64,000 nt of DNA from an uncultured Eubacteriales bacterium. Lineage in GTDB: Bacteria > Bacillota > Clostridia > Oscillospirales > CAG-272. The position numbers and the translations under genes were made by a program. The notes under the pieces are model-generated. The model searched no databases. It saw only the letters and a program-made list of their open reading frames with translations, and was not told the DNA's origin. The stretch lies in NCBI GenBank assembly GCA_934503195.1, contig CAKSVM010000002.1, positions 850 through 64,849 of the forward strand, given 5' to 3'. Below, piece by piece: positions 4,119 to 51,607 of the stretch (positions are counted from its first letter, which is position 1; each line of letters begins with the position of its first letter).

Positions 4119-5480
4119 TTATTCTCCCGCGACCGAAAGTCCTTTTATCAGCGTGTCGGGAGCCGCGATGTTGGTGTAGCCTGGGCCGCCGAAGTCGATG
4201 AAGGAGCTGAGCGTGTCGACCGATTTCAGGAGATCGAAGAAGTTTCCGGCGATCGTGAAGGACTTGACCGGCGCGGATTTCTTTCCGCTTTCGATGAGGA
4301 AGCCCTCGGACTCGATCGAGAAATCGCCCGTGATCGCGTTGGCTCCGGCGTGGAAGCCCTTCATTCCGGTGACGAGAATTCCGTCGCCCGCCTTTTCGAT
4401 AAGCTCGTCGGTCGAAAGCTTTCCAGGCTCGATATAGAACCAGAAGGGAGTCGTGTCGATCGAGGATCCGTTGCGGTCGGCGTTTCCGGTCGTCTCCACG
4501 CCGTCCTTTTCGGCCGAGTTCAGGTTGTAGAGGAGCGTTTTCAGCACGCCGTTCTCGATGACCTTCTTCTCACGCGTCGGAACGCCCTCGCCGTCGAAGT
4601 TTATCTGCATCGTGTTGCCGGGATAGAAAGGCGTGTCGGTGATCGAAACGCAGTCGGCCGCGATCTTTTCGCCGGTCTTGCCTTTGAGGAGCGAAAGCCC
4701 CTTCTGCGCGTTCTCGGCGAAGAACACCGACACGAAGGTCGAGAGAATGTTCGACATCTGCTTCGAATTAAAGATTATATTGTACTTTCCGGTTTTGGGA
4801 CGTCCCGCGCCGAACTTGGCGCGCGCGCCGTCGATGATCTTCTTCGCCAGTGCCTCGCGGTCAAGGCGTTCGCCGTCGGTTTTGCCGAAGCAGTTGTACT
4901 TCGACTCGTAGTCGTAGACTTTTTCGTTTCCGTCGTCGAGAACCGCGTACATATAGGCCGCCGTGTTGCCGACGTGGCTCTGGAGGTCGAGTCCCTTCGA
5001 GTTGTAGAGGAAGATTGTGCTTTCTCCGCCGCCGGCGTAGCACTCGGTTCCGTCGGCGACCTGAGGATCGGCCGCGTAGACCGTGTTCCGGCAGTCCATG
5101 ACTACCTTCTTGACCTCGGCGGCGTCGGGCATCTCAAACTCGTGCTTTTCGACCGGGTGGTAATCCCCGGGCTTCGCGCCGCCGAAGATGATCGCCTTTT
5201 CGTCCTTTTCGATGAGCTTCGCGTTATCGGCCGCGCGGCTGACAAGCGATCTCACCTCGTCCTCGGTCAAAAGCGCGGTCGACGCGTATCCGAGCTTTCC
5301 GTCGACTATGCAGCGGAAGGAGAGCGAGCTTCCGACGCTGCTCGAAAACGAGCTGATTTCGTCCCGGTAGGTTTCGGCTCCGATCGAGGCGTCCTCGATA
5401 TAGTAAAGCTCATACTCGGTGATTCCGAGCGACTCGGCCGCTTCCTTCGCGGCCTTCTTAAGTGAATCAAAGTTGTTCAT
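4119..5480 (-). CDS. pmbA: PmbA/TldE family metalloprotease partner
   Basis: 453-aa ORF immediately downstream of tldD (1-nt gap). Typical PmbA_TldD family sequence without the HExxxH motif. Confidence 0.85.
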   Translation of the reverse strand: MNNFDSLKKAAKEAAESLGITEYELYYIEDASIGAETYRDEISSFSSSVGSSLSFRCIVDGKLGYASTALLTEDEVRSLVSRAADNAKLIEKDEKAIIFGGAKPGDYHPVEKHEFEMPDAAEVKKVVMDCRNTVYAADPQVADGTECYAGGGESTIFLYNSKGLDLQSHVGNTAAYMYAVLDDGNEKVYDYESKYNCFGKTDGERLDREALAKKIIDGARAKFGAGRPKTGKYNIIFNSKQMSNILSTFVSVFFAENAQKGLSLLKGKTGEKIAADCVSITDTPFYPGNTMQINFDGEGVPTREKKVIENGVLKTLLYNLNSAEKDGVETTGNADRNGSSIDTTPFWFYIEPGKLSTDELIEKAGDGILVTGMKGFHAGANAITGDFSIESEGFLIESGKKSAPVKSFTIAGNFFDLLKSVDTLSSFIDFGGPGYTNIAAPDTLIKGLSVAGE

Positions 5481-5481
5481 C

Positions 5482-6861
5482 TTATCTGCCTCCTACCGTG
5501 ATCTCTCTGACCCTGATGAGCGGCTGGCCGACGTCGGTCGGGATAGATCCGCTTGACGATCCGCACATTCCCTGCGCGCGGGCGAGATTCTGTCCGACCA
5601 TGTCGATGTCCATCAGTATCTCGGAGCCTTTGCCGATCAGCGACGCGCCGCGGACTGCCTCGCAGATCTTTCCGTTACGGACGATATAGCCCTCGCTGAC
5701 CGCGAAGTTGAAGGAGCCGTCGATCGGATTGACCGAGCCGCCGCCCATCTTCTTAGCGTAAAGTCCGTATTCGATCGAGGCGATGATGTCCTCGTTCTTA
5801 TCGGTTCCGTTTTCGATGAAGGTGTTGGTCATGCGCGAGGTGGGGTCGTACTCAAAGCTCTGTCTGCGGCTCGAACCGTTAGCTTCCATGCCCATTCTGC
5901 GGCCGTTGAGCTTGTCGATCATATAGCACTTCAGAACGCCCTTTTCAATGAGAACCTTGCGGTTTGACGGAGTTCCCTCGTCGTCGATGTTCATTGAGCC
6001 CCACGCGTTCGGAATCGTGCCGTCGTCGATCGCGGTGACCTTTTCGGAGGCGATCTTCTGACCGAGCTTTCCGGCCATCTGGGAGGTGTTCTTGGCGACC
6101 GACGTGGCTTCGAGCGAGTGTCCGCAGGCCTCGTGGAAGATTACTCCTCCGAAGCCGTTTTCAATCGCTACGGTCATTTTTCCGGCCGGGCAGTAGGACG
6201 CGCCGAGGTTCACCATCGCCTGTCTCGCGGCCTCGCGGCCGACGTCGGCGGGGTTGATTTTTTCGAACATTTCAAGTCCCATGCGGCTTCCGGGCGACTC
6301 TCCGCCCGACTGATTCTCGCCGTCCCTGCTCGCTACCGCGCCGATCGCGAGTCTGGTTCTTATCTGGCGGTCGCCGGTGAGAAGTCCGTCGCTGTTGGCG
6401 ATAAGGATCGAGTGATCGACGTCGAGGAGCGTTCCGCGCACCTGAGAGATCTCGGGCGCGTATTCCTTCGCGGCGAAGTAGCCGGATTTGAGGATATCGA
6501 TCTTGGTTGCCTTCTTCGCGGTGTCGGGGACGATCTTTACGGGGTGGATGTTCGGGAAGATACGCTCGGTCAGGTGGATCTGGATCTCAGCCTTGCCGTC
6601 GGCAAGGACGTCGGCGACCTGTCCGGCGCAGCGGAGCAGACCCTCGCGGGTGAGATCCGTGGTCGACGCGCTGACCATGCGGAGTCCCGAAAACGCGCGG
6701 ATGCCGACTCCGGCGACCGTGGTGTCCGAGATTTCCTCGACTCTGCTGTCGATCATGCTTATCGCGTTGTATCGCGAATTCTCGGCGAAGACCTCGGCAA
6801 AGTCCGCGCCGGTTGACATGGCGCGCCCGAGGACCTCTTCGAGAAGCTGTTTTGCTATCAT
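5482..6861 (-). CDS. tldD: TldD metalloprotease
   Basis: 459 aa. Contains the HEACGHSLE (HExxxH) motif and the GSCG-type C-terminal region (GMCGSSSGSIP) characteristic of TldD. Confidence 0.9.
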   Translation of the reverse strand: MIAKQLLEEVLGRAMSTGADFAEVFAENSRYNAISMIDSRVEEISDTTVAGVGIRAFSGLRMVSASTTDLTREGLLRCAGQVADVLADGKAEIQIHLTERIFPNIHPVKIVPDTAKKATKIDILKSGYFAAKEYAPEISQVRGTLLDVDHSILIANSDGLLTGDRQIRTRLAIGAVASRDGENQSGGESPGSRMGLEMFEKINPADVGREAARQAMVNLGASYCPAGKMTVAIENGFGGVIFHEACGHSLEATSVAKNTSQMAGKLGQKIASEKVTAIDDGTIPNAWGSMNIDDEGTPSNRKVLIEKGVLKCYMIDKLNGRRMGMEANGSSRRQSFEYDPTSRMTNTFIENGTDKNEDIIASIEYGLYAKKMGGGSVNPIDGSFNFAVSEGYIVRNGKICEAVRGASLIGKGSEILMDIDMVGQNLARAQGMCGSSSGSIPTDVGQPLIRVREITVGGR

Positions 6862-6979: not shown

Positions 6980-8308
6980 TCAGTCGCCATACTCGGGAAG
7001 CCAATCGCCGTGAGCCGCGATAAGCTCGTCGCAGAGCTTCACTATGTCGTCTATCGAAAGCTCGGCCGCGGTGTGGGGTTCGAGCATCGCCGCCTGATAG
7101 ATCTTCGAACGCGATTTTGTGACCGCCGCCTCGATTGTCAGAAGCTGCGGGTTTATGTCCGCCGAGTTCATCGCGGCGAGGACTGTCGGAAGCTTTCCGA
7201 TCTTCGTCGGGTGGATGCCCATTCCGTCGACAAGGCAGGGAACCTCGACGCAGGCGTCAGGTGAGAGATTCGTTATAAGACCGTCGTTTATGACGTTTCC
7301 GCCGATTTCATAGGGCTTTCCGGTGACTACCGCCTCCATGATGTAGGACGCGTATTCGAGGCTGCGGTTGTGGGTCAGCTTCGACGGGTCGTCAAGAAGC
7401 TCGGAACGCTGCTTTTTCCAGTTCTCGATCTGATTTACGCAGCGTCTGGGATATTCGTCGAGCGGGATGTTGTATTTTTCGATCAGCTCGGGATACTTCG
7501 ACTTGATGTAGAAGGGATTGTACTCGGCGTTATGCTCGCTCGACTCGGTGCAGTAATAGCCGAAGCGGTTTATGTAATCGAACCTGACCATGTCGCAGTG
7601 CTTTTCGGTGCGGTTCTTTTCGATGGCGCGGCGTTTCGCCTCGGGATAGATATCGTTGCCCTCAAGGTCATGAAGTTCGAGAAGCCAGCCCATGTGGTTG
7701 ATTCCGGCGATCAGCGCGGAATTCTTTCCGACGTACTCGTCCATTCCGACCCGTCTCAAAAGCGTGTCGGCGCAGGTCTGGACGCTGTGGCAGAGTCCGA
7801 TTGTCTTCACTTTGGTGAATCTCTGCATATATCCGGTGAGCATCGCCATAGGGTTGGTGTAGTTGAGGAAGAGGGCGTCCGGACAGACCTCCTCGATGTC
7901 GCGCGCGATTTTCTCAAGCACGGGAATGGTTCTGAGCGCGCGGAAGATTCCGCCGATTCCGAGTGTGTCGCCGATAGTCTGCCGCAGACCGAACTTTTTC
8001 GGAATTTCGAAATCGGTCACGGTGCAGGGCTCGTAGCCGCCGACCTGAATCGCGTTGATGACGAACCGCGCGCCCTCAAGCGCCGCCCTGCGCTCGCTTA
8101 TTCCGAGGTACTTCTTTATTGTCGCCGCGCCGTTATTGATATTTTTATTGAGGGCGGTGAGCATCAGATACGAGTCCTCAAGCCGCTCGGAGTCGATATC
8201 ATAGAGCGCGATCTCGGCCTCGTGAAGCGACGGGGTGAGCATGGTGTCGCCGATGACGTTTTTTACAAACACGGTGCTTCCCGCGCCGATGAAGGTGATT
8301 TTAAGCAT
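6980..8308 (-). CDS. melA: GH4 NAD-dependent alpha-galactosidase (MelA-like)
   Basis: 442 aa. N-terminal Rossmann motif KITFIGAGSTVFVKN. GGYEPCTVTDFEIPKKFGLRQTIGDTLG, GLCHSVQ and C-terminal AAHGDWLP closely recall E. coli MelA from memory. Confidence 0.9.
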   Translation of the reverse strand: MLKITFIGAGSTVFVKNVIGDTMLTPSLHEAEIALYDIDSERLEDSYLMLTALNKNINNGAATIKKYLGISERRAALEGARFVINAIQVGGYEPCTVTDFEIPKKFGLRQTIGDTLGIGGIFRALRTIPVLEKIARDIEEVCPDALFLNYTNPMAMLTGYMQRFTKVKTIGLCHSVQTCADTLLRRVGMDEYVGKNSALIAGINHMGWLLELHDLEGNDIYPEAKRRAIEKNRTEKHCDMVRFDYINRFGYYCTESSEHNAEYNPFYIKSKYPELIEKYNIPLDEYPRRCVNQIENWKKQRSELLDDPSKLTHNRSLEYASYIMEAVVTGKPYEIGGNVINDGLITNLSPDACVEVPCLVDGMGIHPTKIGKLPTVLAAMNSADINPQLLTIEAAVTKSRSKIYQAAMLEPHTAAELSIDDIVKLCDELIAAHGDWLPEYGD

Positions 8309-8367
8309 TTTATGGCCTCCTTGAAATTTTCCGGATATATTATAGCATTATTTGTGTCAAATGTCAA

Positions 8368-8397
8368 TTGCAAAAAGGAAGGAATATATGGTATAAT
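8368..8397 (+). promoter_or_regulatory. Promoter of the AraC-type regulator gene
   Basis: TTGCAA (8368-8373), 18-nt spacer ending TGG, TATAAT (8392-8397). RBS AAGGAG lies before the ATG at 8427. Confidence 0.6.
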
Positions 8398-8426
8398 GTA
8401 AGATATAAGTTGAAGGAGATGATCAG

Positions 8427-9405
8427 ATGAGAATCGGAGTTTCACCCGGCGAGATTGATCTGGCGGACCGCGGCTTTACGGATCTGAATCCGGTGCTTTG
8501 CGGCGACGAGGCCTGTCCGCCGGGACATAATGTGGGGCCGGGCGCGAGAAGCTGCTATCTTCTGCACTATATCGTCAGCGGCCGGGGAACGCTCGAAAAT
8601 CCGCGCGGAAGCTTTGAGGTGGGCGCGGGAAAATGCTTCCTCATCCGTCCTGACGAGCTGACGGTCTACCGCGCGGACGACGCCGACCCGTGGTATTATG
8701 GCAATACCGCACAATTCGCGGCTGACGCCTTAAGCACGCATCTGCTTGCGTCTTTTCCGTCATACGTCACAAAAATTCTTGACGTGGGACCTACCACGCC
8801 TGCGAATTTTTGTTTAGTCTGACGAAATAATCTGACGACTTGCGGAGCAAGTCGTGCGCATCCTACGCGCTTAGAATTATGCGGTGTTGCCTTATATCTG
8901 GATCGGACTGACCGGAAAGCTCGCCCCGCGCCTTGTCGAATACGGCGACGTGATAGATATCGGGTATCCGACGCTCTTCACGACTCTTCCGGAATGCCGG
9001 AACTTTGAGAAGGGACGCGAGGAATTTCTGGCGGGGAAGGCCTTCATGCTGCTTTCGGCTCTGAGCTCGGCGGCTCCGGGCAGAGTCAGGCACGGCACAC
9101 GCGAGACTGTCGAATACGCCGCGAACTTCATAAACCAGAACTACGGAGAGCGGATAGTCGTCGGGGAGCTCGCCGACCGGCTTCATTTCGACCGGCATTA
9201 TTTTTCCGCGATGTTTCACCGCGTGTACGGAATGAGTCCGAAGGAATACATCACGATGGTGAAGCTCGACAACGCCGACCGCCTTTTGAAGTCCGGAATG
9301 AGCGTCTCCGAGGTCGCGCTGATGGTCGGGTACACCGACATTGCCGGATTCTCGAGGCTATACAAGAAGCGGTTCGGAAAGAGCCCGTCAGGGTGGGCGA
9401 GATAA
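8427..9405 (+). pseudogene. AraC family transcriptional regulator interrupted by a MITE insertion
   Basis: The cupin-type N-terminal half (8427-8699, ...RADDADPWYY) and the remainder (8896-9405, IWIGLTGK... plus the AraC HTH GMSPKEYITMVKLDNA...GYTDIAGFSRLYKKRFGKSP) lie in different frames. They are separated by 196 bp. Removing 8700-8895 joins them in frame as DPWYYIWIGLTG. Confidence 0.9.
8700..8891. mobile_element. 192-bp non-autonomous MITE-like insertion
   Basis: 18-bp terminal inverted repeats: GGCAATACCGCACAATTC (8700-8717) versus the complement of GAATTATGCGGTGTTGCC (8874-8891), 16/18 matching. Flanking 4-bp direct duplication TTAT (8696-8699 and 8892-8895). Internal 9-bp hairpin at 8835-8855. 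No ORF of transposase size. Confidence 0.85.
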
Positions 9406-9425
9406 GAGCGGGCGGACAGAAAGAC

Positions 9426-9460
9426 CCGGGCGCGTTTTTTTCGCGTCCGGGCGGTTTTTT
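9426..9460. terminator. Terminator between the convergent AraC and DeoR genes
   Basis: Stem CCGGGCGCG/CGCGTCCGG (one G-T pair) with a T7 loop, followed by GCGGTTTTTT. Confidence 0.65.
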
Positions 9461-9473
9461 GTGATTTTGTGTG

Positions 9474-10166
9474 TCAGTCCTCGGTTATTACACCGTCAAG
9501 CTCCTCGCGGCCGCAGAGGACATAGGTCGCCCTGATTCCGAATTTGCTTTTGTCGCAGAGAAAGTACTTCTTGTCCGAGCGTTCGATAAGCACCTGACGG
9601 AGGATCGTCTGCGGCTCGGAATCGTCGGTTATGACCTTTCCGTCATATCCGTTTGACGAGAAGAAGAGCATATCGAAATTCACCTTTGACGCCGCGACTA
9701 TCGCCGCCTCTCCCGCGATCGCGTTTGATCTCGGAAGCACTTTTCCGCCGAGAAGGCAGGTTCCGATCCCGTTGTCGCTGAGCGTCGCCGCGACCTGAAG
9801 TCCGTTTGTGAAGACGGTGAGCCCCGGCGACCATTTGAGAAAACGCGCCATCTCGATGCAGGTTGAGGAAGCGTCGATGAAGATCGTCTTTCCCGCTCTC
9901 GCGATTTCCGCGGCCTTTTTGCCGATAGCGACCTTGGCGGCGTGATTTTTCGCGATCCGTGAGTTTATCGGAACGCCGCCGGCGATTTCCGCGATTTCCG
10001 CGCCGCCGTGCCGTCTCACGATGAGTCCGGAGCGTTCAAGCTCGTCAAGGTCGCGGCGGATTGTCGACTGACTCTGATAGGTTTTCTGCGAGAGATATTC
10101 CACCGACGCGTAGCCGGTCGCGGAGATTATTTCGTACAGCTCATCCTGACGCTTTGACTTTATCAT
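9474..10166 (-). CDS. DeoR/GlpR family transcriptional regulator
   Basis: MIKSKRQDELYEIISATGYASVEYLSQKTYQSQSTIRRDLDELERSGLIVRRHGGA is a DeoR HTH, followed by a sugar-phosphate-binding C-terminal domain. The start at 10166 forms an ATGA overlap with the upstream GDPD stop. The track's longer N-terminus (R/G-rich) is rejected. Confidence 0.85.
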   Translation of the reverse strand: MIKSKRQDELYEIISATGYASVEYLSQKTYQSQSTIRRDLDELERSGLIVRRHGGAEIAEIAGGVPINSRIAKNHAAKVAIGKKAAEIARAGKTIFIDASSTCIEMARFLKWSPGLTVFTNGLQVAATLSDNGIGTCLLGGKVLPRSNAIAGEAAIVAASKVNFDMLFFSSNGYDGKVITDDSEPQTILRQVLIERSDKKYFLCDKSKFGIRATYVLCGREELDGVITED

Positions 10167-10954
10167 CTGTATCCGTGCTTTTTGAGGATTTCCATCATCT
10201 CTGCCGGATGATTCGATGTGAAGAGCTCGCCGCCGAGCTTCGCGCCGCGGAGGATGTCCTCCTCCTTTACCGCGCCCGCGCCGATCCACGGATGGATTCC
10301 GTCGGCTCTCACCTTATCGTACCAGTCGGGCGGACAGATCGGGTCGCTGTGCCAGTTTGCCATTCCGTCCTCGTAGGTCACGTTGAAGAGGCAGGCGCAG
10401 TAAAGAACCTTCGACGCCGCCTCGTTCCCCATGATCTTATAGGGATAGTAGCCGTGGAGGCGGTATTTGTGACCGTATTCCGAGTCGATCCAGATGAGAA
10501 GATCGCCGTCGAAGCTGTTGATGTAAAGCCTTTCGGAGAGATTGTATTCCTCAAAGAGCGCGATGATCTTCCGCGCGCTTTCCTTGGCGAAGTCCTCGCC
10601 CTTGTCGCGGAAGTAGTCCTTGAACTCGAAATTGAACCACATCTTTTGGTCTCTTTTTGTGAGTTCTAGGAATTCGCGGAAGGTCGGGATCCGCGTCCCG
10701 GCGAACCTTGGATCCTTTTTGATTCCGAAGTCGAGCTTTTTCAGCTCGGCGAGAGTCATTTCTGAAACGGTTCCGCGGCCGTCCGACGTGCGGTCGACCG
10801 TCGCGTCGTGGATCACGACGATTTCGCCGTCCTTTGTCATGCGGAGGTCGAGTTCGATCATGTCGGCTCCGATTTCGTACGCGCTCTCAAACGCGGGCAT
10901 TGTGTTTTCGGGGAAACCGTCGACGTTTCCGCGGTGCGCGGCTGTTTCGATCAT
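10163..10954 (-). CDS. Cytoplasmic glycerophosphodiester phosphodiesterase family protein
   Basis: AAHRGNVDGFPENTMPAFESAYEIGADMIELDLRMTKDGEIVVIHD matches the GDPD catalytic motifs. 263 aa. Confidence 0.85.
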   Translation of the reverse strand: MIETAAHRGNVDGFPENTMPAFESAYEIGADMIELDLRMTKDGEIVVIHDATVDRTSDGRGTVSEMTLAELKKLDFGIKKDPRFAGTRIPTFREFLELTKRDQKMWFNFEFKDYFRDKGEDFAKESARKIIALFEEYNLSERLYINSFDGDLLIWIDSEYGHKYRLHGYYPYKIMGNEAASKVLYCACLFNVTYEDGMANWHSDPICPPDWYDKVRADGIHPWIGAGAVKEEDILRGAKLGGELFTSNHPAEMMEILKKHGYR

Positions 10955-11115: not shown

Positions 11116-11144
11116 TTGACATTCTCACAGAAATATGTTATAAT
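11116..11144 (+). promoter_or_regulatory. Consensus sigma-70 promoter for the GH36 gene
   Basis: TTGACA (11116-11121), 17-nt spacer ending TGT, TATAAT (11139-11144). Confidence 0.7.
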
Positions 11145-11173
11145 TGACACACCCAAACATCGGAGGTAAAATT

Positions 11174-13087
11174 ATGAAGGAAATCATGAAGCCCCAGCCG
11201 TTTTCGGTCAGGGTATATACAACCGACATCGGATTCCGCCGCGACGGAGATATCTATGTCAACGATCAGTACAGGCTCACGGTCAGCGTGAAGCTCGATG
11301 AGTTCGATGGCACCGGGGCGGTCAGACAGACAAACACGATCACGAACAACGGCGACAGCGAGGTGATTCTCTCGGGATTCTCGTCGGCCGCGATAAAGAC
11401 CTCGCGCGGACTCATCGGAGTCGACCGCAACCGCTGGCAGGCCGAGGGACAGTGGAATTTCTTCACGGCCGCGCAGTGCGGACTCGTCCCGGCGTCGATT
11501 CATCCGTGGGAACGCGAGACCTATCGGATTGAGTCGGTCGGAAGCTGGTCGACCGGGGTTTTCTATCCGCTTACCGTTGTCATCGGTGAGGACGGATATT
11601 CTTACTACATGGAGATCGAGGGCGCGCACAACTGGATGCTGACTCACTCGGTCACGGGCGGAATCAAATCCCCGGCCTTCGAGCTTGAGGGAACCGCTTC
11701 GCACGAGGAAAACGGCGGATGGATTTATCATCTGAAGCCGGGCGAGAGCTACACGACCCAGCCGGCCGTCTTCGGCCGCGTGAAGGGCGGATTTGAGGAA
11801 GTCTGCGGCGAGCTTGTCGCTTACCGCCGCGCCACGACTCTGACTCATTTTGAAAGCGACGTGATCCCGGTCGTCTTCAACGACTACATGAACTGTCTGT
11901 GGGGAGTTCCATCTGACGAAAAGCTTCTGCCGCTCATAAAGGCGGCGTCTAAGGTCGGATGCGAATATTTCTGCATCGACGCGGGATGGCACAAGAACGC
12001 GGCTCCGAATTCCTTCGGCGCGGCCGGGGACTGGATCGTCGCGAACGAGCGTTTCGGCGAGGGCGGACTCGCGAAGATTTTCGCGAACATGAAGGAGAAC
12101 GGACTTGTCCCGGGCGTGTGGTTCGAGTTTGACACGGTAAATCCGTCCGCGGCGGCGCACGGGCTTGACGACGACTGCCTTCTTCGCCGCTACGGGAAGG
12201 AATTCCCGCGCGCGTTCTTCAATTTCCGTAACGAAAAGGTGAGGGCGCACCTGAAATCGCGCGTAGCCGAGCTTTACGGAATGGGCGTCCGCTACATAAA
12301 GAACGACTACAATCAGACGACCGGAATCGGCTGCGACAACGAGGGCGACGCTCCGGCCGAGGGGCTGATCCGGAACTACGAGGCGTTTGTAAGCTTCATC
12401 GACGAGGTCCGCGCGGAATTTCCCGATCTTGTGATCGAAAACTGCGGAAGCGGAGCCTGCCGCGCCGAAAACGGAACGCTGAAGCATTTCCATCTCCAGT
12501 CGACGAGCGATCAGGAGATATACTACAATTATCCGTCGATAATCATCGGCTCGGCGGCGCAGTACGCGCCCGAGAAGGCCGGAATCTGGTCGTATCCGAT
12601 GCCGGTTTTCTACGATGAGCGTAACGACGCGAAGTTTGACGACGAATGGCGTTCGCGCTTCACCGACGGCGAGGAGACGATCTTCAACATGGTGAACGGA
12701 ATGTGCGGCGCGCTCTATCAGTCGGGTCACCTTGAGTATTCGGACGAGAAGAATCTCTCACTCGTGGCAGAGGGAATTTCGGCATACAAGAAGATGCGCG
12801 GCGACGTTGTGAAGGCGCGTCCGATTCTCCCGACCGGAACGATTCTGATCGGCGAGGAGGGCTTCGCGTCGTACGGACTTGAGACTCCCGACAAAACCCG
12901 CGCGTATCTCGCGGTCTGGCGTATCGGCGGGGATTCTGACGAGGCTGTTATCGACCTTTCGAAGTACGGATACAAAAAAGCGTCGGCGTTCTATCCGGCG
13001 TCAGGCGAGTGTGAGTTTGAGGATGGCGTACTTAAGGTAAAGCTTCCGGCAAAGCATTCGGCGAGAATGATTCTGGTGGAGAAATAA
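11174..13087 (+). CDS. Alpha-galactosidase-like glycoside hydrolase (GH36-type)
   Basis: Start is the ATG at 11174, after a GGAGG RBS. Motifs FCIDAGWH, RYIKNDYN and ENCGSGACR resemble the GH36 catalytic TIM-barrel signatures. The 530-aa antisense ORF is R-rich and rejected. Confidence 0.75.
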   Translation: MKEIMKPQPFSVRVYTTDIGFRRDGDIYVNDQYRLTVSVKLDEFDGTGAVRQTNTITNNGDSEVILSGFSSAAIKTSRGLIGVDRNRWQAEGQWNFFTAAQCGLVPASIHPWERETYRIESVGSWSTGVFYPLTVVIGEDGYSYYMEIEGAHNWMLTHSVTGGIKSPAFELEGTASHEENGGWIYHLKPGESYTTQPAVFGRVKGGFEEVCGELVAYRRATTLTHFESDVIPVVFNDYMNCLWGVPSDEKLLPLIKAASKVGCEYFCIDAGWHKNAAPNSFGAAGDWIVANERFGEGGLAKIFANMKENGLVPGVWFEFDTVNPSAAAHGLDDDCLLRRYGKEFPRAFFNFRNEKVRAHLKSRVAELYGMGVRYIKNDYNQTTGIGCDNEGDAPAEGLIRNYEAFVSFIDEVRAEFPDLVIENCGSGACRAENGTLKHFHLQSTSDQEIYYNYPSIIIGSAAQYAPEKAGIWSYPMPVFYDERNDAKFDDEWRSRFTDGEETIFNMVNGMCGALYQSGHLEYSDEKNLSLVAEGISAYKKMRGDVVKARPILPTGTILIGEEGFASYGLETPDKTRAYLAVWRIGGDSDEAVIDLSKYGYKKASAFYPASGECEFEDGVLKVKLPAKHSARMILVEK

Positions 13088-44686: not shown

Positions 44687-46252
44687 TCACCTTCGGTATT
44701 TTTTATCCCATTCCTGTTGCTTCGAACGAATATACAGCCAATACAGAATATTGCCTATTCCACAGGTTAGAAAGAAGAGTATGATATGTACCGCGTATTC
44801 GTTTTTCGGACGGGAAGGAATAGTCTCGCTCGGATAATAAACATAGTCATTCTCATCATCCCCCTCATCGGCGTCAGGCGGGACTTCCAGAATGTTTGCT
44901 CTGCTGTACACCTCACCGATCAGACTGCTGTTGTCTGATAAAGAAGCGGTTATCAGCAAGCCCGCATCATGTAATGATAAAACACGACCCTGAGCGGGCA
45001 TTGTTGCCATTACATTATCAAAAAGCTCCAGATATTTTTCAATGCTCATGTTTTCCGCGAGCAGATAAACTTTCAATTTGTCGATGGGAGCTTGATTTAT
45101 CAAGAGCCGATCATCAATGTCGAATTGCGTAGACACTACGTTGATCGAGTAATACAAGACCTCGCTTATTGCCCATATTGCGCAATCATACCGATTGTTT
45201 GCCCCGAAGAAGTCAGCCATACGTTGTTTGATATCCATGTGGATGAAATCATCGTGGTTCTCGTCACAAAGCGATAGACGACGGTTGAGTTCATTGAATA
45301 TTACTTCATCGGAAGACGCACCCGGATTCTGTGACATTAACTTCGACATGGTACACATAGAAATTCCGTATTGCGGCTTTGGATGGAATTTTCTTACCCA
45401 TGCGTTTGAGCTGATCTCGCTATCGCCCATTTCAGTCAGTTCGCCATTTTTTATGAATCCTCTGTTTTCGAGCGATTTGAGCAGAGCGGGAACGTCAGAC
45501 ACGCCATATGTACTTTGCCAGAATTTCGCGATTGGTTTTCCGGAATAATATTTTTTTGCGTATGTCAGCAAAAGTATCTCATGTGGATATAGTCCTGACG
45601 TACTCTTGCCGCATAGCTCCGTTTTGTAATAAAAATCCGTTGACGGACAGTATTGGCTGTACGTAGAAGGCGCGGTACGAGTGTTTGATGAGACGCCGGA
45701 GTTGCTTGAAGCGATGTCATTGCCATCGTCGGATTCAGCGATCTGCCGTAACTGATTTATGTAATCGAGATTGGTTTTATAAAGAGATTCGTAGTAATCT
45801 TCGACTGAATCGCAGAAATCCAATACTTTTTGCTTTCTTGTGGATTCCTGCTTATAGCTCTCAACAATATGTTTAATACCACGTGTTATAAAATTGTTGA
45901 TCGAGGTCTCTTGCTTTTCGTAGATCAATTTTACGGCTTTTGCTGGTGGAGTGCCACGGAATGAGACGTAGTGAGAGATGCTTTCGAGTTTGAGAAAATT
46001 CAAAAGCATAAGATTATATCGTTTGAAATAAACGTCAGGCGTACAGGTTGAATTGACTAGGTTCTTGCTTTCGTCACCGATTTTCAACCACTGCGGTGCC
46101 ATGAATTCGGCATACTCGCGGCGACCTTTGACTGAACGCTTTGATTCCATCATAGCGGTTTCTTTAATGTTTGCGCGATGTACATTAAATAAAGTCGAAT
46201 CGCAAGGGATATTGGTAGGTGCAGGCTCTTGAACTGATAGATAGTCTTTCAT
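44687..46252 (-). CDS. Orphan 521-aa protein with a single C-terminal TM helix, low-GC (prophage moron, function unknown)
   Basis: GAGGTGA RBS. GC of sampled 60-nt lines is about 35-43%, versus about 57% in flanking phage genes. C-terminal TM YAVHIILFFLTCGIGNILYWLYI followed by a basic tail. No motif I recognise. Confidence 0.8.
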   Translation of the reverse strand: MKDYLSVQEPAPTNIPCDSTLFNVHRANIKETAMMESKRSVKGRREYAEFMAPQWLKIGDESKNLVNSTCTPDVYFKRYNLMLLNFLKLESISHYVSFRGTPPAKAVKLIYEKQETSINNFITRGIKHIVESYKQESTRKQKVLDFCDSVEDYYESLYKTNLDYINQLRQIAESDDGNDIASSNSGVSSNTRTAPSTYSQYCPSTDFYYKTELCGKSTSGLYPHEILLLTYAKKYYSGKPIAKFWQSTYGVSDVPALLKSLENRGFIKNGELTEMGDSEISSNAWVRKFHPKPQYGISMCTMSKLMSQNPGASSDEVIFNELNRRLSLCDENHDDFIHMDIKQRMADFFGANNRYDCAIWAISEVLYYSINVVSTQFDIDDRLLINQAPIDKLKVYLLAENMSIEKYLELFDNVMATMPAQGRVLSLHDAGLLITASLSDNSSLIGEVYSRANILEVPPDADEGDDENDYVYYPSETIPSRPKNEYAVHIILFFLTCGIGNILYWLYIRSKQQEWDKKYRR

Positions 46253-46317
46253 AAAATAATATCACCTCAATTTTTCTTACTTTCAACCCACACTGTCATC
46301 ATAGACAGTGACATAAT

Positions 46318-46752
46318 TTATAGTCCTTCAACCCTGAGCCGCGCGATCTTCTCGTCAACCCCGAACATCTTGCCGAGCTGTTCATACGTGAAGTGTCTGT
46401 ACTCGTCAAGGTCATCATCGCTGATAAGCAGACAGGACGCGAAGTAAGTCGCTTCCTTTTCATATCGGCTGATCGGATACAAGGTATGATTCCGGAGAAA
46501 ATGCGTGTTGTTGTCCGGATGCAGAATGGCGTGTCCGAGTTCGTGGGCGCACACAAATCTCTGCTCCCCGCGCGTAAGCTGTGAGTTGATATGTATGAAT
46601 TTCTGCCTGTATGCTGTATTATAGAATCCGTTTATCTGATATAGCGGCTCAAAGGTGACGATGATTCCGAGTGAGCGCGCTATACAGCACGGGTCACGGC
46701 TGTATTCGTCAGCGAGCTTCGCGGCGATGCCGGAGATTGCATCAGCCTTCAT
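46318..46752 (-). CDS. ImmA/IrrE family metallopeptidase
   Basis: HELGHAILH (HExxH) within a 144-aa protein. It overlaps the upstream XRE repressor gene by 11 nt, the classic ImmR/ImmA arrangement. Confidence 0.88.
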   Translation of the reverse strand: MKADAISGIAAKLADEYSRDPCCIARSLGIIVTFEPLYQINGFYNTAYRQKFIHINSQLTRGEQRFVCAHELGHAILHPDNNTHFLRNHTLYPISRYEKEATYFASCLLISDDDLDEYRHFTYEQLGKMFGVDEKIARLRVEGL

Positions 46753-47215
46753 TATTTGAATCCTTCCGGTATTTTTTCGGTGTGTATTTTTGCTTCGCGA
46801 TCAGCTTGCCCATTCTTATTGAGTTTTCGATAGACTTGATCAGCGCGTCGCGCGTCTCGTCGTCAAGTTCAAGCGGCTCGCCGTCGAACATTAACGCTTC
46901 TCCGGTCGAACCGAGGTCTTCGAGGACGGCGTTCAGTCGCTTTGAAATGTCGATCTCGTCCCGCTCTGTGATCGTCGGGGCAAAATCTCCTTCGCTCTGC
47001 GAGGGGGATTTTTTTGCTTTCGGCGTGTCTGTGCGTTCGAGAAGATAGTCGACCGTTACATTGAAATACTTGGCGATCGCCGAAAGTGTTTCGGTATCCG
47101 GGTCACGTCTCCCGCATTCATACGCGCTGAGTGTATTCTGCGCTATGTTCAGAATCTTGCCGAGTTCTGTCTGAGACAGCCCATGTTGCTTTCTTAATTC
47201 TTTAATCCTTTCCAT
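46742..47215 (-). CDS. XRE-family phage repressor (CI/ImmR-like)
   Basis: N-terminal HTH: LRKQHGLSQTELGKILNIAQNTLSAYECGRRDP. 157 aa. Divergent from the cro-like gene. Confidence 0.88.
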   Translation of the reverse strand: MERIKELRKQHGLSQTELGKILNIAQNTLSAYECGRRDPDTETLSAIAKYFNVTVDYLLERTDTPKAKKSPSQSEGDFAPTITERDEIDISKRLNAVLEDLGSTGEALMFDGEPLELDDETRDALIKSIENSIRMGKLIAKQKYTPKKYRKDSNNEG

Positions 47216-47228
47216 GACACAACTCCCT

Positions 47229-47257
47229 TTCTGTAATCATAATATCACAAATTGGGC
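47229..47257 (-). promoter_or_regulatory. Repressor (lysogenic) promoter
   Basis: The minus strand reads TTGACT, a 17-nt spacer ending TGA, then TATTAT. Confidence 0.65.
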
Positions 47258-47307
47258 TAAAAGTCAAGGGGACGAAAAAAATATTTTGAAAATATCTCAA
47301 AAAGGGC

Positions 47308-47336
47308 TTGACAAATAGCACGTAATGTGCTATAAT
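47308..47336 (+). promoter_or_regulatory. Early lytic promoter with an embedded palindromic operator
   Basis: TTGACA (47308-47313), 17-nt spacer, TATAAT (47331-47336). The spacer contains the palindrome TAGCAC-gtaat-GTGCTA. Confidence 0.7.
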
Positions 47337-47391
47337 CTTAATCAAGCAAGAGAAAATCTTGAAAATATCCGAAAAGGAGATAAAAAGCAAA

Positions 47392-47604
47392 ATGCGTAAC
47401 TGGCTTACAGCACTTCGCAAAGCTCGCGGAATGACGCAGGCGAAACTTGCCAAAGCCGCCGGGATTTCGCAGAACTACCTCAGCGCGATTGAAGTCGGGC
47501 AACGGAATGTTCCGGTTTCAACAGCGAAGCGGATCGCGTCCGCGCTCGGCTTCGAGTGGCAGAGATTTTATGAAGACGAAAACGAAAAGGAGACAGCAAA
47601 ATGA
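47392..47604 (+). CDS. XRE-family Cro-like regulator
   Basis: MRNWLTALRKARGMTQAKLAKAAGISQNYLSAIEVGQRN HTH. AAAGGAG RBS. The ATG at 47392 is preferred over the TTG at 47359. Confidence 0.85.
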   Translation: MRNWLTALRKARGMTQAKLAKAAGISQNYLSAIEVGQRNVPVSTAKRIASALGFEWQRFYEDENEKETAK

Positions 47605-47933
47605 CCGAAACAATCATCCGGGTTTACACCGGAATCATCAAGACAATCAGAAAGCCCGACTGGAAAACCAGACAGACCGGCTACTACGAACTCGCCTACA
47701 AGGAGTTCGACGCGGAGACCGGCGAGCTGATCGGCGAAGGGACAGAGGACTTCACCGGCGAAAGAATGTGCGAGGAACTCAGGCAGTATGAAATCCTGCT
47801 CCGCGACGACGTGAGGAACGGCATAGACGAGCCTCACAGGTGGATATACGTTAGTAAGAATCAGGTCTACCCCGCAATCGCGGCTCGGTTCGTGTACGGC
47901 GAAGAAGTTTTAAGAGTCAAAAGAATACATTAA
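47601..47933 (+). CDS. Phage hypothetical protein
   Basis: 110-aa ORF with a 4-nt overlap to the cro-like gene and protein-like composition. Confidence 0.6.
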   Translation: MTETIIRVYTGIIKTIRKPDWKTRQTGYYELAYKEFDAETGELIGEGTEDFTGERMCEELRQYEILLRDDVRNGIDEPHRWIYVSKNQVYPAIAARFVYGEEVLRVKRIH

Positions 47934-47948
47934 GAGGAGATAAAGAAA

Positions 47949-48557
47949 ATGACCATCAAAGAATTCACCGAGCGCACGGGTTTCTACCCGACCTACGAGC
48001 ACTACAAGTTCATCGAGAAGTCCTATATGGACTTCGACGGCGACAAGGACGCCTTCTGCAAGGCGTTCCGCGAGAACACCGACGGCATCGCCGAGAAGAT
48101 CACCCGCGAAGTTGAACGCTTCGTTGAAGAGCAGACCGAACTCGGAATGCACGAACACGACGCGATGGAAGAGCGCATCGCGCGGCAGGCTGGCATCATA
48201 AACGATCTTCAGGCGCAGCTCGACGCCGAACTCGAATGGACGCCCTGCAAGGACGCCGGGACGCGGATGACTCAGCGCGACTACGTGAAGCTCAAAGAGG
48301 ACAGGTTCACGAAGACGATGACCGATGAGGAAGCCGCGAACTTCATCGCCGAGGAACTCGGGTTCAACGCCGAGAGGGTGCGGATCATCCGCAAGGCTGA
48401 GACCTACGAGGTCAACAAGCACCGCCGGATGAGAGTCGCCGAGACCTACGAGCGCGAGCCGCTGTACGAGTCGACCGATTGGAACTACGTCAGATTCGAT
48501 GTGTACGGCATGACGTACGAGTACGTCAACGGACAGCTCATGATGTACCAAAGATAA
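47949..48557 (+). CDS. Phage hypothetical protein
   Basis: 202-aa ORF with a GAGGAG RBS; E/D/K-rich helical protein. Confidence 0.65.
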   Translation: MTIKEFTERTGFYPTYEHYKFIEKSYMDFDGDKDAFCKAFRENTDGIAEKITREVERFVEEQTELGMHEHDAMEERIARQAGIINDLQAQLDAELEWTPCKDAGTRMTQRDYVKLKEDRFTKTMTDEEAANFIAEELGFNAERVRIIRKAETYEVNKHRRMRVAETYEREPLYESTDWNYVRFDVYGMTYEYVNGQLMMYQR

Positions 48558-48569
48558 GGAGGCAAAGAA

Positions 48570-48764
48570 ATGAAGAAGTACAAGGTCTATGACCTTTATG
48601 AAAGTAAGGAAACCTTGGGCTACGCCGACACGATGGATGAGGTAAAGCTCATGGCGAGAGATCAGGCGGAGGCTACTGACGGCGAGTGCCTCGTGGTCTG
48701 CGCGGAACTCAACCCCGACACGGGCAGGTATCGGTTCAGCGAATACAAAGAGGTCAAAATCTGA
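48570..48764 (+). CDS. Phage hypothetical protein
   Basis: 64-aa ORF with an AAGGAGG RBS. Confidence 0.6.
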   Translation: MKKYKVYDLYESKETLGYADTMDEVKLMARDQAEATDGECLVVCAELNPDTGRYRFSEYKEVKI

Positions 48765-48858
48765 TCGCAGAGTGAGGGAGCACCGAGTGCTCCTGTAATG
48801 CGGGAACGTCGGTCACAACCCCGACGAATCGCAGAATTTTCAAAAAGGAGAAACCACA

Positions 48859-49470
48859 ATGGAAAACGAAAACAAGATTCAGGTCTTCGAGAAAGAAGAA
48901 TTCGGCAAAGTCCGCACGCTCATGCGTGACGGCGAGCCGTGGGCAGTCGGCAAGGATGTAGCCGAAGCCCTCGGTTACAAGAACCCGCAGGAAGCGGTCA
49001 GAATGCACGTAGACCCCGAAGACAAAGGGGTGAGCAAAACTCTCACCCCTCGCGGAGAGCAGGACGTAACCCTCATCAACGAATCCGGCTTATACTCCCT
49101 CATCCTCTCATCAAAGCTCCCGAAGGCGAAGGAGTTCAAACGCTGGATAACCTCCGAGGTCCTGCCCGCGCTCCGCAAGACCGGACACTACGGCACGGCG
49201 AAAGCTCCCGACGCCGCCGGAACGGTCGCGCTGATCGAATCGCTCCGGAAGATCATGGAGTCACAGCGCAGTCACCCGGTCGAAATCGCCGAGATGGCGA
49301 AGTCGCTCTGCGAACAGGCAGGAATCGCGCTTCCCGAGAGCTTCATCTGCAACCGCTACTTCCCGACCGCCCCGCTCGGTCAGAGCAAACAGGACAAGCT
49401 CGACTACATCTTCGATTTCACGCACATGGATCGCTTCCAGTTCGAGGCGAAGTACAAGACAAAGGAGTGA
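48859..49470 (+). CDS. Bro-N domain antirepressor-like protein
   Basis: IQVFEKEEFGKVRTLMRDGEPWAVGKDVAEALGY...LINESGLYSLILSSKLPKAKEFKRWITSEVLP matches Bro-N. Confidence 0.8.
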   Translation: MENENKIQVFEKEEFGKVRTLMRDGEPWAVGKDVAEALGYKNPQEAVRMHVDPEDKGVSKTLTPRGEQDVTLINESGLYSLILSSKLPKAKEFKRWITSEVLPALRKTGHYGTAKAPDAAGTVALIESLRKIMESQRSHPVEIAEMAKSLCEQAGIALPESFICNRYFPTAPLGQSKQDKLDYIFDFTHMDRFQFEAKYKTKE

Positions 49471-49474
49471 TAAG

Positions 49475-49792
49475 ATGATCAACGTCCCGACTATAACGAG
49501 CGTCGAAGCCGCGCTCGACACCTTCTACAAGTTCCCTCAGCTCGGGAATAAGGAAATAAAGCTGATCTTCGGGCAGATCGGCTCGGCGAAGATATGTGAG
49601 CTGAAAGTCCTCGCCCGCGAGAAGATGAAGGAGCAGAATCAGCCGCTCTGGAACAACAAGACAGTAAACACCGACAGCGCGTATCAGGCGTGGGGACTCG
49701 ACGTCGCCGACCTCGAACGCCGATACGCGAGACTCAAACGAATGGAGAAGGCAAATGGAGAAGAACATTCCCGGACTGAAAAAGGCGTATAA
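49475..49792 (+). CDS. Phage hypothetical protein
   Basis: 105-aa ORF in the early operon. Confidence 0.55.
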   Translation: MINVPTITSVEAALDTFYKFPQLGNKEIKLIFGQIGSAKICELKVLAREKMKEQNQPLWNNKTVNTDSAYQAWGLDVADLERRYARLKRMEKANGEEHSRTEKGV

Positions 49793-50012
49793 CGCCCATC
49801 TTTCGCGGCTCCGGGCGAACAGACCGTCGAAGGACGAAGCGACCCGCGACCTCATGTACTGGTCGGCGAAGTACCTCGAAGCGGTTCTGGACGGCGTGAG
49901 CTTCGACCCCGCTTCCGGACTGTACGGAGGGATCCTCGAAGCCTACGCCCGCCGTGAAGCGTTAAAACAGTATCTGGAGGAGGTGAAAGCAGATGCAGAC
50001 CGTACCATATGA
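49755..50012 (+). CDS. Phage hypothetical protein
   Basis: 85-aa ORF overlapping its neighbours, as is typical of phage early genes. Confidence 0.5.
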   Translation: MEKNIPGLKKAYNAHLSRLRANRPSKDEATRDLMYWSAKYLEAVLDGVSFDPASGLYGGILEAYARREALKQYLEEVKADADRTI

Positions 50013-50253
50013 GAAGACGCACGCGATCCAGAGCGACATCATCAAAAAGCAGGAGCGCGAGATCAACGCTCTGCGCGAGTCGAACAGGATCCTCGAAGCG
50101 ACCGCGCAGACGCTCGCGGAAGCCCTTTCGCAGGCTCTGAGCCGCGAAGGACGCGACCGGGTGTTCGTACCCGTCAAGGAGATAAAGCCGTCCGGCGCGT
50201 CGTTCAGAGTCGAGCAGACCATCGACGGCGATGTTCTTCTCATCCGCGCATGA
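49993..50253 (+). CDS. Phage hypothetical protein
   Basis: 86-aa ORF with a predicted coiled-coil-like N-terminus. Confidence 0.5.
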   Translation: MQTVPYEKTHAIQSDIIKKQEREINALRESNRILEATAQTLAEALSQALSREGRDRVFVPVKEIKPSGASFRVEQTIDGDVLLIRA

Positions 50254-50332
50254 GAAAAGCCCGCGCGGAATGGCAGTTCCGACGGCGGGCAGATAAAAGT
50301 ATCCACCAATATTATATCACAAAGAAAGGTAA

Positions 50333-51607
50333 ATGTCAATGAAAATCAGCAAACTTGAAATCGAAAACGTGAAGCGCGTCAAGGCGGTCAGCATCGAGCC
50401 GACGCAAAACGGCTTAACCGTCATCGGCGGCAGGAACAATCAGGGCAAGACGTCCGTCCTCGATTCCATCGCGTGGGCTTTGGGCGGGGACAAGTTCAAG
50501 CCGACTTCGGCAAGACGCGACGGTTCGGTCGTACCGCCCTTCCTGCACGTCGAGATGGATAACGGACTCGTTGTCGAACGCAAGGGCGAAAACAGCGCGC
50601 TTAAGGTCATCGACCCGGCGGGACGGAAGGGCGGACAGCAGCTCTTAAACGAGTTCGTCGAGACCTTCGCGCTCGACCTGCCCCGCTTCATGGAGCAGAC
50701 CTCGAAGGAAAAAGCGAACGTCCTTCTGCGGATCATCGGAGTTGAAGAGCAGTTAAAGAAGCTCGACTACGACGAGTCGACGACCTTCAACCGGAGGCGC
50801 GAGGTCGGCAGAATCGCGCTTCAGAAGCAAAAGTACGCCGAGGAGCTGCCGCTCTACCCCGACGTTCCGAAGGAGCCGATCTCGGCGTCCGAACTCATCC
50901 TTCGCCAGCAGGACATACTCGCGAAGAACGGCGAGAATCAGCGTCTCAGAAGCGAATACGCGAGCATGGTCAAGCGTCACGACGAACTGCTCGAAAAGCT
51001 CAGAGCGACGCAGGCTGAGTTCGACGAGCTGACCGCGAAGATTGCGATCTCGACGAAGACGGTGGAGGAGCTTGTCGACGAGAGCACCGACGAGATCCGC
51101 GAAAGTCTTCTGAACATCGAGAAGATCAACACGAAAGTTCGCGCGAACGGCGAGCGTGAACGCGCCGAGATCGAAGCCGAACAGTACAAGAAGGACTACG
51201 ACGCGCTGACGGCTGAAATCGAAGACCTGCGCGCCGCCCGGACGAAGCTGCTCGACAACGCCGATCTCCCGCTCCCCGGCTTGTCGGTCGTCGACGGCGA
51301 GCTGACTTACAACGGTGTTAAGTGGGACTGCATGTCCGGCTCAGATCAGCTTAAGACAGCTACGGCGATTGTAAGACGCCTGAATCCGAAGTGCGGATTC
51401 GTCCTGCTCGACAAGCTCGAACAGATGGACATTGACACGCTCCGTGAGTTCGGACAGTGGCTCGAATCCGAGGGCTTGCAGGCGATCGCGACCAGAGTTT
51501 CGACCGGGGATGAATGCTCGATCATCATCGAAGACGGCACGGCAGTTGCCGAAAAATCCTCGGCAACTCCGAAGAATGAAATCAAATGGAAGGCAGGGGA
51601 ATTTTAA
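50333..51607 (+). CDS. SMC/SbcC-like AAA ATPase (phage recombination/replication module)
   Basis: N-terminal Walker A (GGRNNQGKTSVLDSIAWALGG), a long central coiled coil, and a C-terminal Walker B-like FVLLDKLEQMD. Confidence 0.75.
   Translation: MSMKISKLEIENVKRVKAVSIEPTQNGLTVIGGRNNQGKTSVLDSIAWALGGDKFKPTSARRDGSVVPPFLHVEMDNGLVVERKGENSALKVIDPAGRKGGQQLLNEFVETFALDLPRFMEQTSKEKANVLLRIIGVEEQLKKLDYDESTTFNRRREVGRIALQKQKYAEELPLYPDVPKEPISASELILRQQDILAKNGENQRLRSEYASMVKRHDELLEKLRATQAEFDELTAKIAISTKTVEELVDESTDEIRESLLNIEKINTKVRANGERERAEIEAEQYKKDYDALTAEIEDLRAARTKLLDNADLPLPGLSVVDGELTYNGVKWDCMSGSDQLKTATAIVRRLNPKCGFVLLDKLEQMDIDTLREFGQWLESEGLQAIATRVSTGDECSIIIEDGTAVAEKSSATPKNEIKWKAGEF

Follow-up and report, generated by a model that had tools for sequence, protein, structure and literature searches.

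The window analysed here is a stretch of 64,000 nucleotides on contig CAKSVM010000002.1 of an uncultured Eubacteriales bacterium (Clostridia, Oscillospirales, CAG-272; assembly GCA_934503195.1). It contains an AraC-type regulator gene that is interrupted by a miniature inverted-repeat transposable element (MITE), next to a divergent gene for an alpha-galactosidase. The 5′ part of the regulator gene (codons 1–91) lies on the plus strand at 8427–8699. The 3′ part (codons 92–260 and the stop codon), encoding the remainder of the ligand-binding domain, then the linker and the helix-turn-helix (HTH) domain, follows on the same strand at 8896–9405. The alpha-galactosidase gene, melA-like and of family GH4, is on the minus strand at 6980–8308. 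A first-pass annotation, made from the sequence alone, had reported two open reading frames (ORFs) in different frames in place of the regulator, 8427–8822 and 8884–9405. Between them it had placed a 192-bp element without coding capacity, with 18-bp terminal inverted repeats (TIRs), a TTAT duplication and an internal 9-bp hairpin. All of these features were recovered from the sequence at the same coordinates.

The non-autonomous element (8700–8891; no strand assigned) begins with the left TIR on the plus strand (8700–8717; GGCAATACCGCACAATTC) and ends with the right TIR on the minus strand (8874–8891; reverse complement GGCAACACCGCATAATTC), which matches the left one at 16 of 18 positions. 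The two copies of the target site duplication (TSD), TTAT, lie at 8696–8699 and 8892–8895. When the left 18-mer was searched in the 64 kb with up to three mismatches, the only sites were the element's own two ends; shuffled sequences gave 0.03 matches on average, and two matches were reached in 1 of 100 shuffles. The two TIR mismatches, at positions 6 and 13, coincide with positions that are C/T-variable across the MITE family, indicating that they are family variation and not decay. With 192 bp, the element is too short to encode a transposase, and its GC content (50.5%) is lower than that of the surrounding gene (59%). Two direct TARTCTGACGA repeats (8815–8838) represent the right-end version of a subterminal TTYCGTCAG motif, with the left-end counterpart TTTTCCGTCAT near 8753–8763. 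This motif is found approximately 45–55 nt from the ends in many copies of the family, and near both ends in the window copy. The internal hairpin is a perfect 9-bp stem with a 3-nt loop (8835–8843/8847–8855) that is terminator-like on the minus strand, and a plus-strand counterpart lies at 8736–8751, so that terminator-like hairpins are present on both strands. The element folds with a minimum free energy (MFE) of −47.8 kcal/mol (z = −7.2 relative to shuffled sequence). An Rfam scan of 8300–9300 at E ≤ 1 gave no match, leaving this strong fold unexplained by any known structured RNA. A promoter scan detected no promoter-like site inside the element.

Excision of 8700–8895 (196 bp, the element plus one TTAT) restores, as had been claimed, a 783-nt ORF of 260 aa that reads ...DPWYYIWIGLTG... 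across the junction. The empty site itself is observed in three syntenic loci of a sister lineage (L120, L121 and L122), which have the gene order of the window (TldD, GH4, AraC, DeoR, GDPD), lack the element and read GTGGTA-TTAC-ATCTGG with a single tetranucleotide. The difference between TTAC in the sister and TTAT in the window is synonymous (TAC/TAT); in the window lineage, an exact empty-site junction would read GTGGTATTATATCTGG. The closest intact ortholog, P0001 (260 aa, 90% identical), is encoded on the empty-site contigs. The 196 bp are also absent from ten of ten more distant orthologs (down to 39% identity), and the joined protein aligns with these ten without a gap at the junction, which falls on the invariant columns P88, W89, Y91, W93 and G95. 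The filled allele is present with 100% identity in at least three other assemblies. One of them, the independently assembled L123, spans the complete element within a 6.5-kb match of 100% identity to the window, showing that the insertion is no assembly artefact. The public contigs L124 and L125 end inside the element, as expected at repeats. For annotation, the two 'AraC fragments' should be treated as a single gene split by a mobile element.

The window and the sister lineage differ by 5–9% of DNA positions across the locus. Every sampled assembly of the window lineage carries the insertion, and an uninterrupted allele is not on record: the exact 260-aa protein is absent from approximately 15 billion sequences, among which both split products are present. 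The insertion postdates the split from the sister lineage, and its age was sufficient for fixation in the sampled assemblies. The first-pass annotation had called the insertion recent. This holds in part: the perfect TSD and the remnants free of stop codons and frameshifts are in line with it, whereas fixation in the lineage and six derived amino acid changes in the 3′ remnant are not.

The TIR had been left without a family; it is assigned here, through autonomous relatives, to the IS5 family of insertion sequences (IS). These relatives were identified with the E. coli IS5 transposase InsH as the seed against six-frame ORFs of the fetched loci, followed by metagenome relatives of the match. 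The seed retrieved one IS5-like gene, in L220 (E = 7.6e-81 against E. coli InsH). The left end of the L220 element, GGCAATCCCACACAAAG, with its boundary set at the point where independent copies begin to align, shares 13 of its first 15 positions with the MITE terminus. Relatives of the L220 transposase at 56–68% identity, found in metagenomes, are complete IS with the MITE's own termini. The element in L279 (2419–3549, 1131 bp) has the left end GGCAATACCGCACAAACC, the right end (reverse complement) GGCAGCACCGCACAATTG and the duplication CTAT/CTAT. L283 (924–2055, 1132 bp) has GGCAACACCGCACGAAGA and GGCAACACCGCATAATAG with TTAA/TTAA, and L284 (720–1825, 1106 bp) has GGCAACACCGCACAACTT and GGCAACACCGCACAAATG with CTAA/CTAA. 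Similar ends were found in L280, L285 and L278, and the six elements together span 1106–1139 bp. Their ends agree with the MITE consensus at 14–17 of 18 positions, and the right end of a further copy (L282) is exact over all 18 (GGCAACACCGCACAATTC). The first 15 nt of the left MITE TIR are identical to the left ends of the IS in L279 and L278. The single ORF of these autonomous relatives, 322–326 aa long, matches the NCBIfam model NF033581 (transpos_IS5_4) with 296–304 bits (cutoff 140) and the Pfam domains DDE_Tnp_1 and DUF772. The transposase clade comprises 7,875 proteins at E ≤ 1e-40, many of them on contigs of 1.1–1.4 kb. More distant relatives are textbook members of the IS5 group, with ends such as GGAAGGTCTGAACAAG and CTAA, CTAG, TTAG or TTAA duplications. 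The two ends of the autonomous IS are unlike (left …CCGCACAAAG/ACC, right …CCGYAYAATTC), and the MITE carries the right-end type (…AATTC) at both ends. On the evidence of the 15–18-bp termini that it shares with IS of approximately 1.1 kb, the element is an IS5-family MITE, that is, a user of the recognition sequence of an IS5-family transposase.

Two other families were considered. IS1380 or piggyBac-like elements came into question through the TTAA preference of the family, but IS1380 ends begin with CC and belong to an IS1380-type transposase, whereas the ends found here begin with GG and the transposase is of the IS5 family. IS701 was considered for its strict 4-bp duplication; its end consensus, ---YACT-Y--YR (PMC2266710), is out of register with GGCAAYACCGCAYAATTC, the terminus of the MITE family, and no IS701 model was among the hits of the transposase. 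Searches that started from the termini did not yield an autonomous element. Among 245 loci, no element of 400–4000 bp with matching duplications was found, either with an exact left end or with up to five mismatches at both ends, except for a chance-level case in L104; the longest copy had 348 bp. In 119 genome loci, the ORFs adjacent to unpaired ends were inspected by eye for a transposase and looked like ordinary host genes (for example transporter-like and membrane proteins). Truncated ends at contig edges nearly all matched MITE interiors. Matches between related contigs of separate samples dominated the self-BLAST for internal repeats of 700–3500 bp, and GG...CC inverted-repeat pairs 700–3000 bp apart with a 4-bp duplication were noise apart from the unrelated L104 repeat. 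The latter (4622–6017) spans 1396 bp and includes a 300-aa ORF. Its inverted repeats (GGATATAGTATTCCTT) match perfectly (16/16) and are flanked by ATAT at either end. A 344-bp MITE copy overlaps with it, and it may represent either a local duplication or an unrelated IS.

Short elements with the terminus GGCAAYACCGCAYAATTC are numerous in genomes of Oscillospiraceae and Ruminococcaceae as well as in viral contigs. With this sequence as the query, a scan of one genome per species located it in at least 119 stretches, and a separate scan of viral contigs in at least 120 (at least 239 in all). The genome matches listed were nearly all from Oscillospiraceae, Ruminococcaceae and other Clostridia, with labels including Faecalibacterium, Gemmiger, Subdoligranulum, Ruminococcus, Acutalibacter and Ruthenibacterium, for both metagenome-assembled genomes and isolates. 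Inward-facing pairs of ends lay 35–348 bp apart with identical 4-bp flanks. Over 147 distinct ends, the flanks were TTAA (53), TTAG (16), CTAA (11), TAAA (10), TATA (9) and TTAT (3), among others, so that TTAA, TTAG or CTAA occurred at 80 of the 147. The nearest complete relative of the window copy lies in another genome (L089 2397–2568, TTAA/TTAA), with 96% identity in the first 137 bp. The hairpin segment 8835–8855 is missing from it, which makes the hairpin an indel within the subfamily and no defining part of the element. In silico excision of 44 distinct complete copies left the junction without an ORF of 100 aa or more in 30 cases. Of 220 positions drawn at random from these loci, in contrast, 157 fell within ORFs of 200 aa or more. 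Most copies of the family are thus intergenic, and the window copy belongs to an intragenic minority.

Some contigs classed as viral (L191, L127, L138 and L146) carry the family at very high density. In L191, an IMG/VR contig of 10.6 kb, eight ends make up four full copies of 172 bp. Several whole contigs start and stop inside copies, pointing to frequent contig breaks in gut metagenome assemblies. The last 81 bases of L190 consist of a TIR end followed directly by a ribosome-binding site and the ORF start MAKKQQEYGNDSIRQL, which may be the N-terminus of GyrB. A solo end or truncated copy seems to lie just upstream of a housekeeping gene. The family breaks short-read assemblies at many sites; it could be of use for repeat masking and for explaining contig ends, and possibly for linking viral contigs to their hosts. 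A plasmid BLAST with the element matched only unannotated Subdoligranulum records. Literature searches gave nothing specific on a MITE or IS of this kind and no paper with the terminal sequence, although it may still be registered in ISfinder. This MITE family, abundant in gut Clostridia, is apparently undescribed. A survey of prokaryotic MITEs (PMC11602168) covers Faecalibacterium and Ruminococcus only in passing.

The relatives with MITE termini resemble the IS5 group (E. coli IS5, insH) in their length of approximately 1.1–1.2 kb, the single ORF, the 4-bp duplications, the transposase type and YTAR-type targets (CTAA, TTAG, TTAA), which also occur in more distant IS5 relatives. The end of E. 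coli IS5, GGAAGGTGCGAATAAG, starts with GG and has the skeleton GG-AA----G-A-AA in common with the MITE ends, although it matches the 18-bp MITE terminus at only about half of the positions. The window element differs from the IS5 group in being too short for a transposase, and from the autonomous relatives in having one end type twice instead of one end of each type. Well-known bacterial MITEs are RUP of Streptococcus pneumoniae and the Correia elements of Neisseria. Like these, the present family is short, structured and non-coding, has TIRs and a TSD, is mostly intergenic and occurs in many copies, here in both host and viral contigs, and the window element would likewise depend on a transposase supplied in trans. 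Its termini are those of a different family, and the window copy is intragenic. Eukaryotic relatives of IS5 are the PIF/Harbinger transposases, with the Tourist/PIF-Harbinger MITEs of plants, such as mPing. These also have only TIRs in common with a transposase source of the IS5 superfamily and use short AT-rich targets, but they are eukaryotic, duplicate 3 bp (TWA) and need a second, Myb-like protein.

The restored 260-aa protein has the Pfam domains AraC_binding at residues 21–105 (E = 1.2e-16) and HTH_18 at 183–259 (E = 1e-21) as well as HTH_AraC. By these domains, the disrupted gene encodes a regulator of the AraC/XylS family with an N-terminal ligand-binding domain and a C-terminal double HTH. 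The insertion site is in codons 90–92, with the cut between 91 and 92, within the AraC_binding domain. From the native start, the predicted product has 91 own and 40 unrelated residues and ends at the stop codon 8820–8822; this 131-aa product is called in public assemblies. The 173-aa product (P0002, 8884–9405, plus strand) is also called by gene finders in several public assemblies and starts from a GTG that lies within the right TIR. The bases ahead of this codon (8866–8883) contain no Shine-Dalgarno-like sequence, and the GTG start is probably an artefact of ORF calling. The lack of a promoter-like site in the element and of a ribosome-binding site for the 3′ part, together with the cut between cupin and HTH, led us to infer that the regulator is most probably null. 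An intrinsic-terminator-like hairpin with a T run (9425–9451, plus strand) follows the regulator gene, and the gene after it is encoded on the opposite strand; a polar effect beyond the regulator is therefore not expected.

We read the locus as the insertion of a MITE with IS5-type termini into an AraC regulator gene, probably leaving the regulator null and the control of alpha-galactoside use altered, and consider this reading about 90% probable. An IS5-family DDE transposase made elsewhere would have bound both MITE termini and mobilized the element in trans. A staggered 4-bp cut at TTAT in codons 90–92 would have received the MITE, and gap repair would have duplicated the TTAT. The N-terminal cupin ligand-binding domain would thereby have been severed from the linker and the HTH domain. 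Ribosomes starting at the native start codon would read 40 codons of the element and stop, and the 3′ part would be left without an evident promoter or ribosome-binding site. The disruption of a regulator gene by a MITE is a well-known kind of event, and knowledge of the mechanism of such elements is unchanged by it.

Selection on the remnants was estimated as the ratio of nonsynonymous to synonymous divergence (dN/dS) from the empty-site allele with the NG86 method. The ratio was 0.085 for the 5′ remnant and 0.278 for the 3′ remnant of araC, and 0.03 for tldD, 0.09 for melA, 0.12 for deoR and 0.12 for gdpd. With the outgroups used to polarize amino acid changes, six were on the window lineage and none on the sister lineage. 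All six were in the 3′ remnant, among them E181G, which hits a conserved position in the ortholog alignment. The mildly raised 3′ ratio and the derived changes point, if weakly, to a loss of regulator function.

Several observations weigh against an insertion from an IS5-type source that abolished regulator function. The target TTAT is off-consensus and uncommon for the family (3 of 147 ends), and the 64-kb window held no autonomous IS and no second MITE copy. The window MITE and the autonomous IS have the terminal 15–19 nt in common and nothing subterminal, and so the MITE is no simple internal-deletion derivative of the IS copies found. The synonymous divergence (dS) from the sister was 0.14 upstream of the insertion versus 0.32 downstream; recombination instead of relaxed selection could thus explain part of the dN/dS contrast. 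The 3′ ORF is open over 170 codons with a dN/dS far below 1, which would allow a residual function of the DNA-binding half. Finally, the melA promoter-like site is a perfect sigma-70 consensus, unlike a strictly activator-dependent promoter. As an observation apart, approximately 90 bp directly upstream of the insertion are identical in both lineages; together with the jump in dS, this may point to a recombination boundary at the element or close to it.

The alternative that fares best, though we regard it as unlikely, is that residues 92–260 are still made, from GTG 8884 or by read-through and re-initiation, and regulate without a ligand, as the C-terminal domains of some AraC/XylS proteins do when isolated. 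The element provides the in-frame GTG, the ORF is intact over 173 codons, its product is called in several public assemblies and the 3′ dN/dS of 0.28 is well under the neutral value. However, the GTG has no Shine-Dalgarno-like sequence ahead of it, the element has no promoter-like site and the plus-strand terminator-like hairpin at 8736–8751 stands before the 3′ part. The position of 6 of 6 polarizable changes, including E181G, on the window lineage suggests relaxed constraint. A pairwise dN/dS, moreover, mixes the time before the insertion and the purifying selection in the sister, and even a pseudogene would be expected to give a ratio below 1.

Less likely still is a reversible switch, in which precise excision at a useful frequency would restore the regulator and the population would toggle its alpha-galactoside regulation. 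The exact restoration of the frame on removal of the element and one TTAT fits this picture, and the 96%-identical copy in another genome suggests recent activity of the subfamily. Exact restoration in silico, however, is a property of any insertion with a target duplication. The insertion is in every assembly found for the window lineage, the uninterrupted protein is missing from the approximately 15 billion sequences, and the accumulating 3′ amino acid changes argue for long-term disruption. A free-standing AraC DNA-binding domain created by the MITE, with sugar-independent control of the alpha-galactosidase genes, or its variant, the on/off switch, would mean that a MITE rewires the carbohydrate regulation of a gut bacterium and does not just break a gene; we consider this improbable. 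A chimeric join in the assembly, or the precise loss of an ancestral segment from the sister lineage, has a negligible probability and is refuted as far as the present data allow. Misassembly at repeats does occur, and two public contigs end within the element, but L123 spans it whole, ten outgroup orthologs lack the segment at a junction in invariant residues, and the segment has the TIRs, TSD and family membership of a transposable element.

The most probable reading, a MITE insertion that left the regulator null, would bear on the neighbouring alpha-galactosidase genes. The melA product matches Pfam Glyco_hydro_4 and Glyco_hydro_4C and the NCBIfam alpha-galactosidase model NF011657 with 616 bits (cutoff 486). 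Between melA and the regulator, back-to-back promoter-like sites were found at 8339–8397: TTGACA-17-TATAAT (12/12, with an extended TG) on the minus strand, towards melA, and TTGCAA-18-TATAAT on the plus strand, towards the regulator. A compensatory change of the melA promoter after loss of the regulator was considered and rejected, as both hexamers are the same in the empty-site lineage. The divergent GH4–AraC pair is present in the window, in L120, in L348 (regulator identity 63%) and in L351 (43%), and the linkage is lost in L350 (39%). A GH36 melibiase gene lies directly downstream of the regulator in L348 and L349, and a GH36 homolog is present in the window at 11144–13087.

AraC-family regulators of alpha-galactoside use are known from E. 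coli (MelR, with melAB) and Streptococcus mutans (MsmR). The window regulator resembles them in its N-terminal cupin-type sensor, its C-terminal double HTH and its divergent orientation from an alpha-galactosidase gene, a pairing kept in orthologs down to 43% identity. It differs from MelR in scoring below the MelR equivalog cutoff (41 bits, cutoff 253) and in the perfect consensus of the melA promoter-like site. No NCBIfam equivalog reached its cutoff for the regulator, which may be called MelR/MsmR-type by genomic context only. The expected phenotype would be a loss of sugar-responsive control of alpha-galactoside use, either of induction or of repression, and the control of melibiose and raffinose use would probably differ between the window lineage and the sister lineage.

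The sister lineage has an insertion of its own in this region. L120 carries 129 bp of hairpin-rich sequence (2763–2891, corresponding to window position ~8311–8314; MFE −44.9 kcal/mol) between the melA start codon and its AGGAGG ribosome-binding site. This sequence lacks inverted ends, and the fetched loci contained no second copy. With the window MITE, both lineages thus carry a different insertion in the same melA–regulator module. In the window (9474–10954) and in L120, genes for a DeoR-family regulator and a glycerophosphodiester phosphodiesterase (GDPD) lie on the opposite strand between the regulator and GH36. In L348, where the interval compared is 4786–4871, GH36 directly follows the regulator, and the two-gene DeoR/GDPD module seems to have been inserted or lost. 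Elsewhere in the window, within a stretch free of ORFs of at least 220 aa (46252–50333), Rfam gave a full-length match to the Twister-P5 ribozyme (RF02684) on the plus strand at 48766–48824, with 55.3 bits (gathering threshold 37.6) and E = 9e-9.

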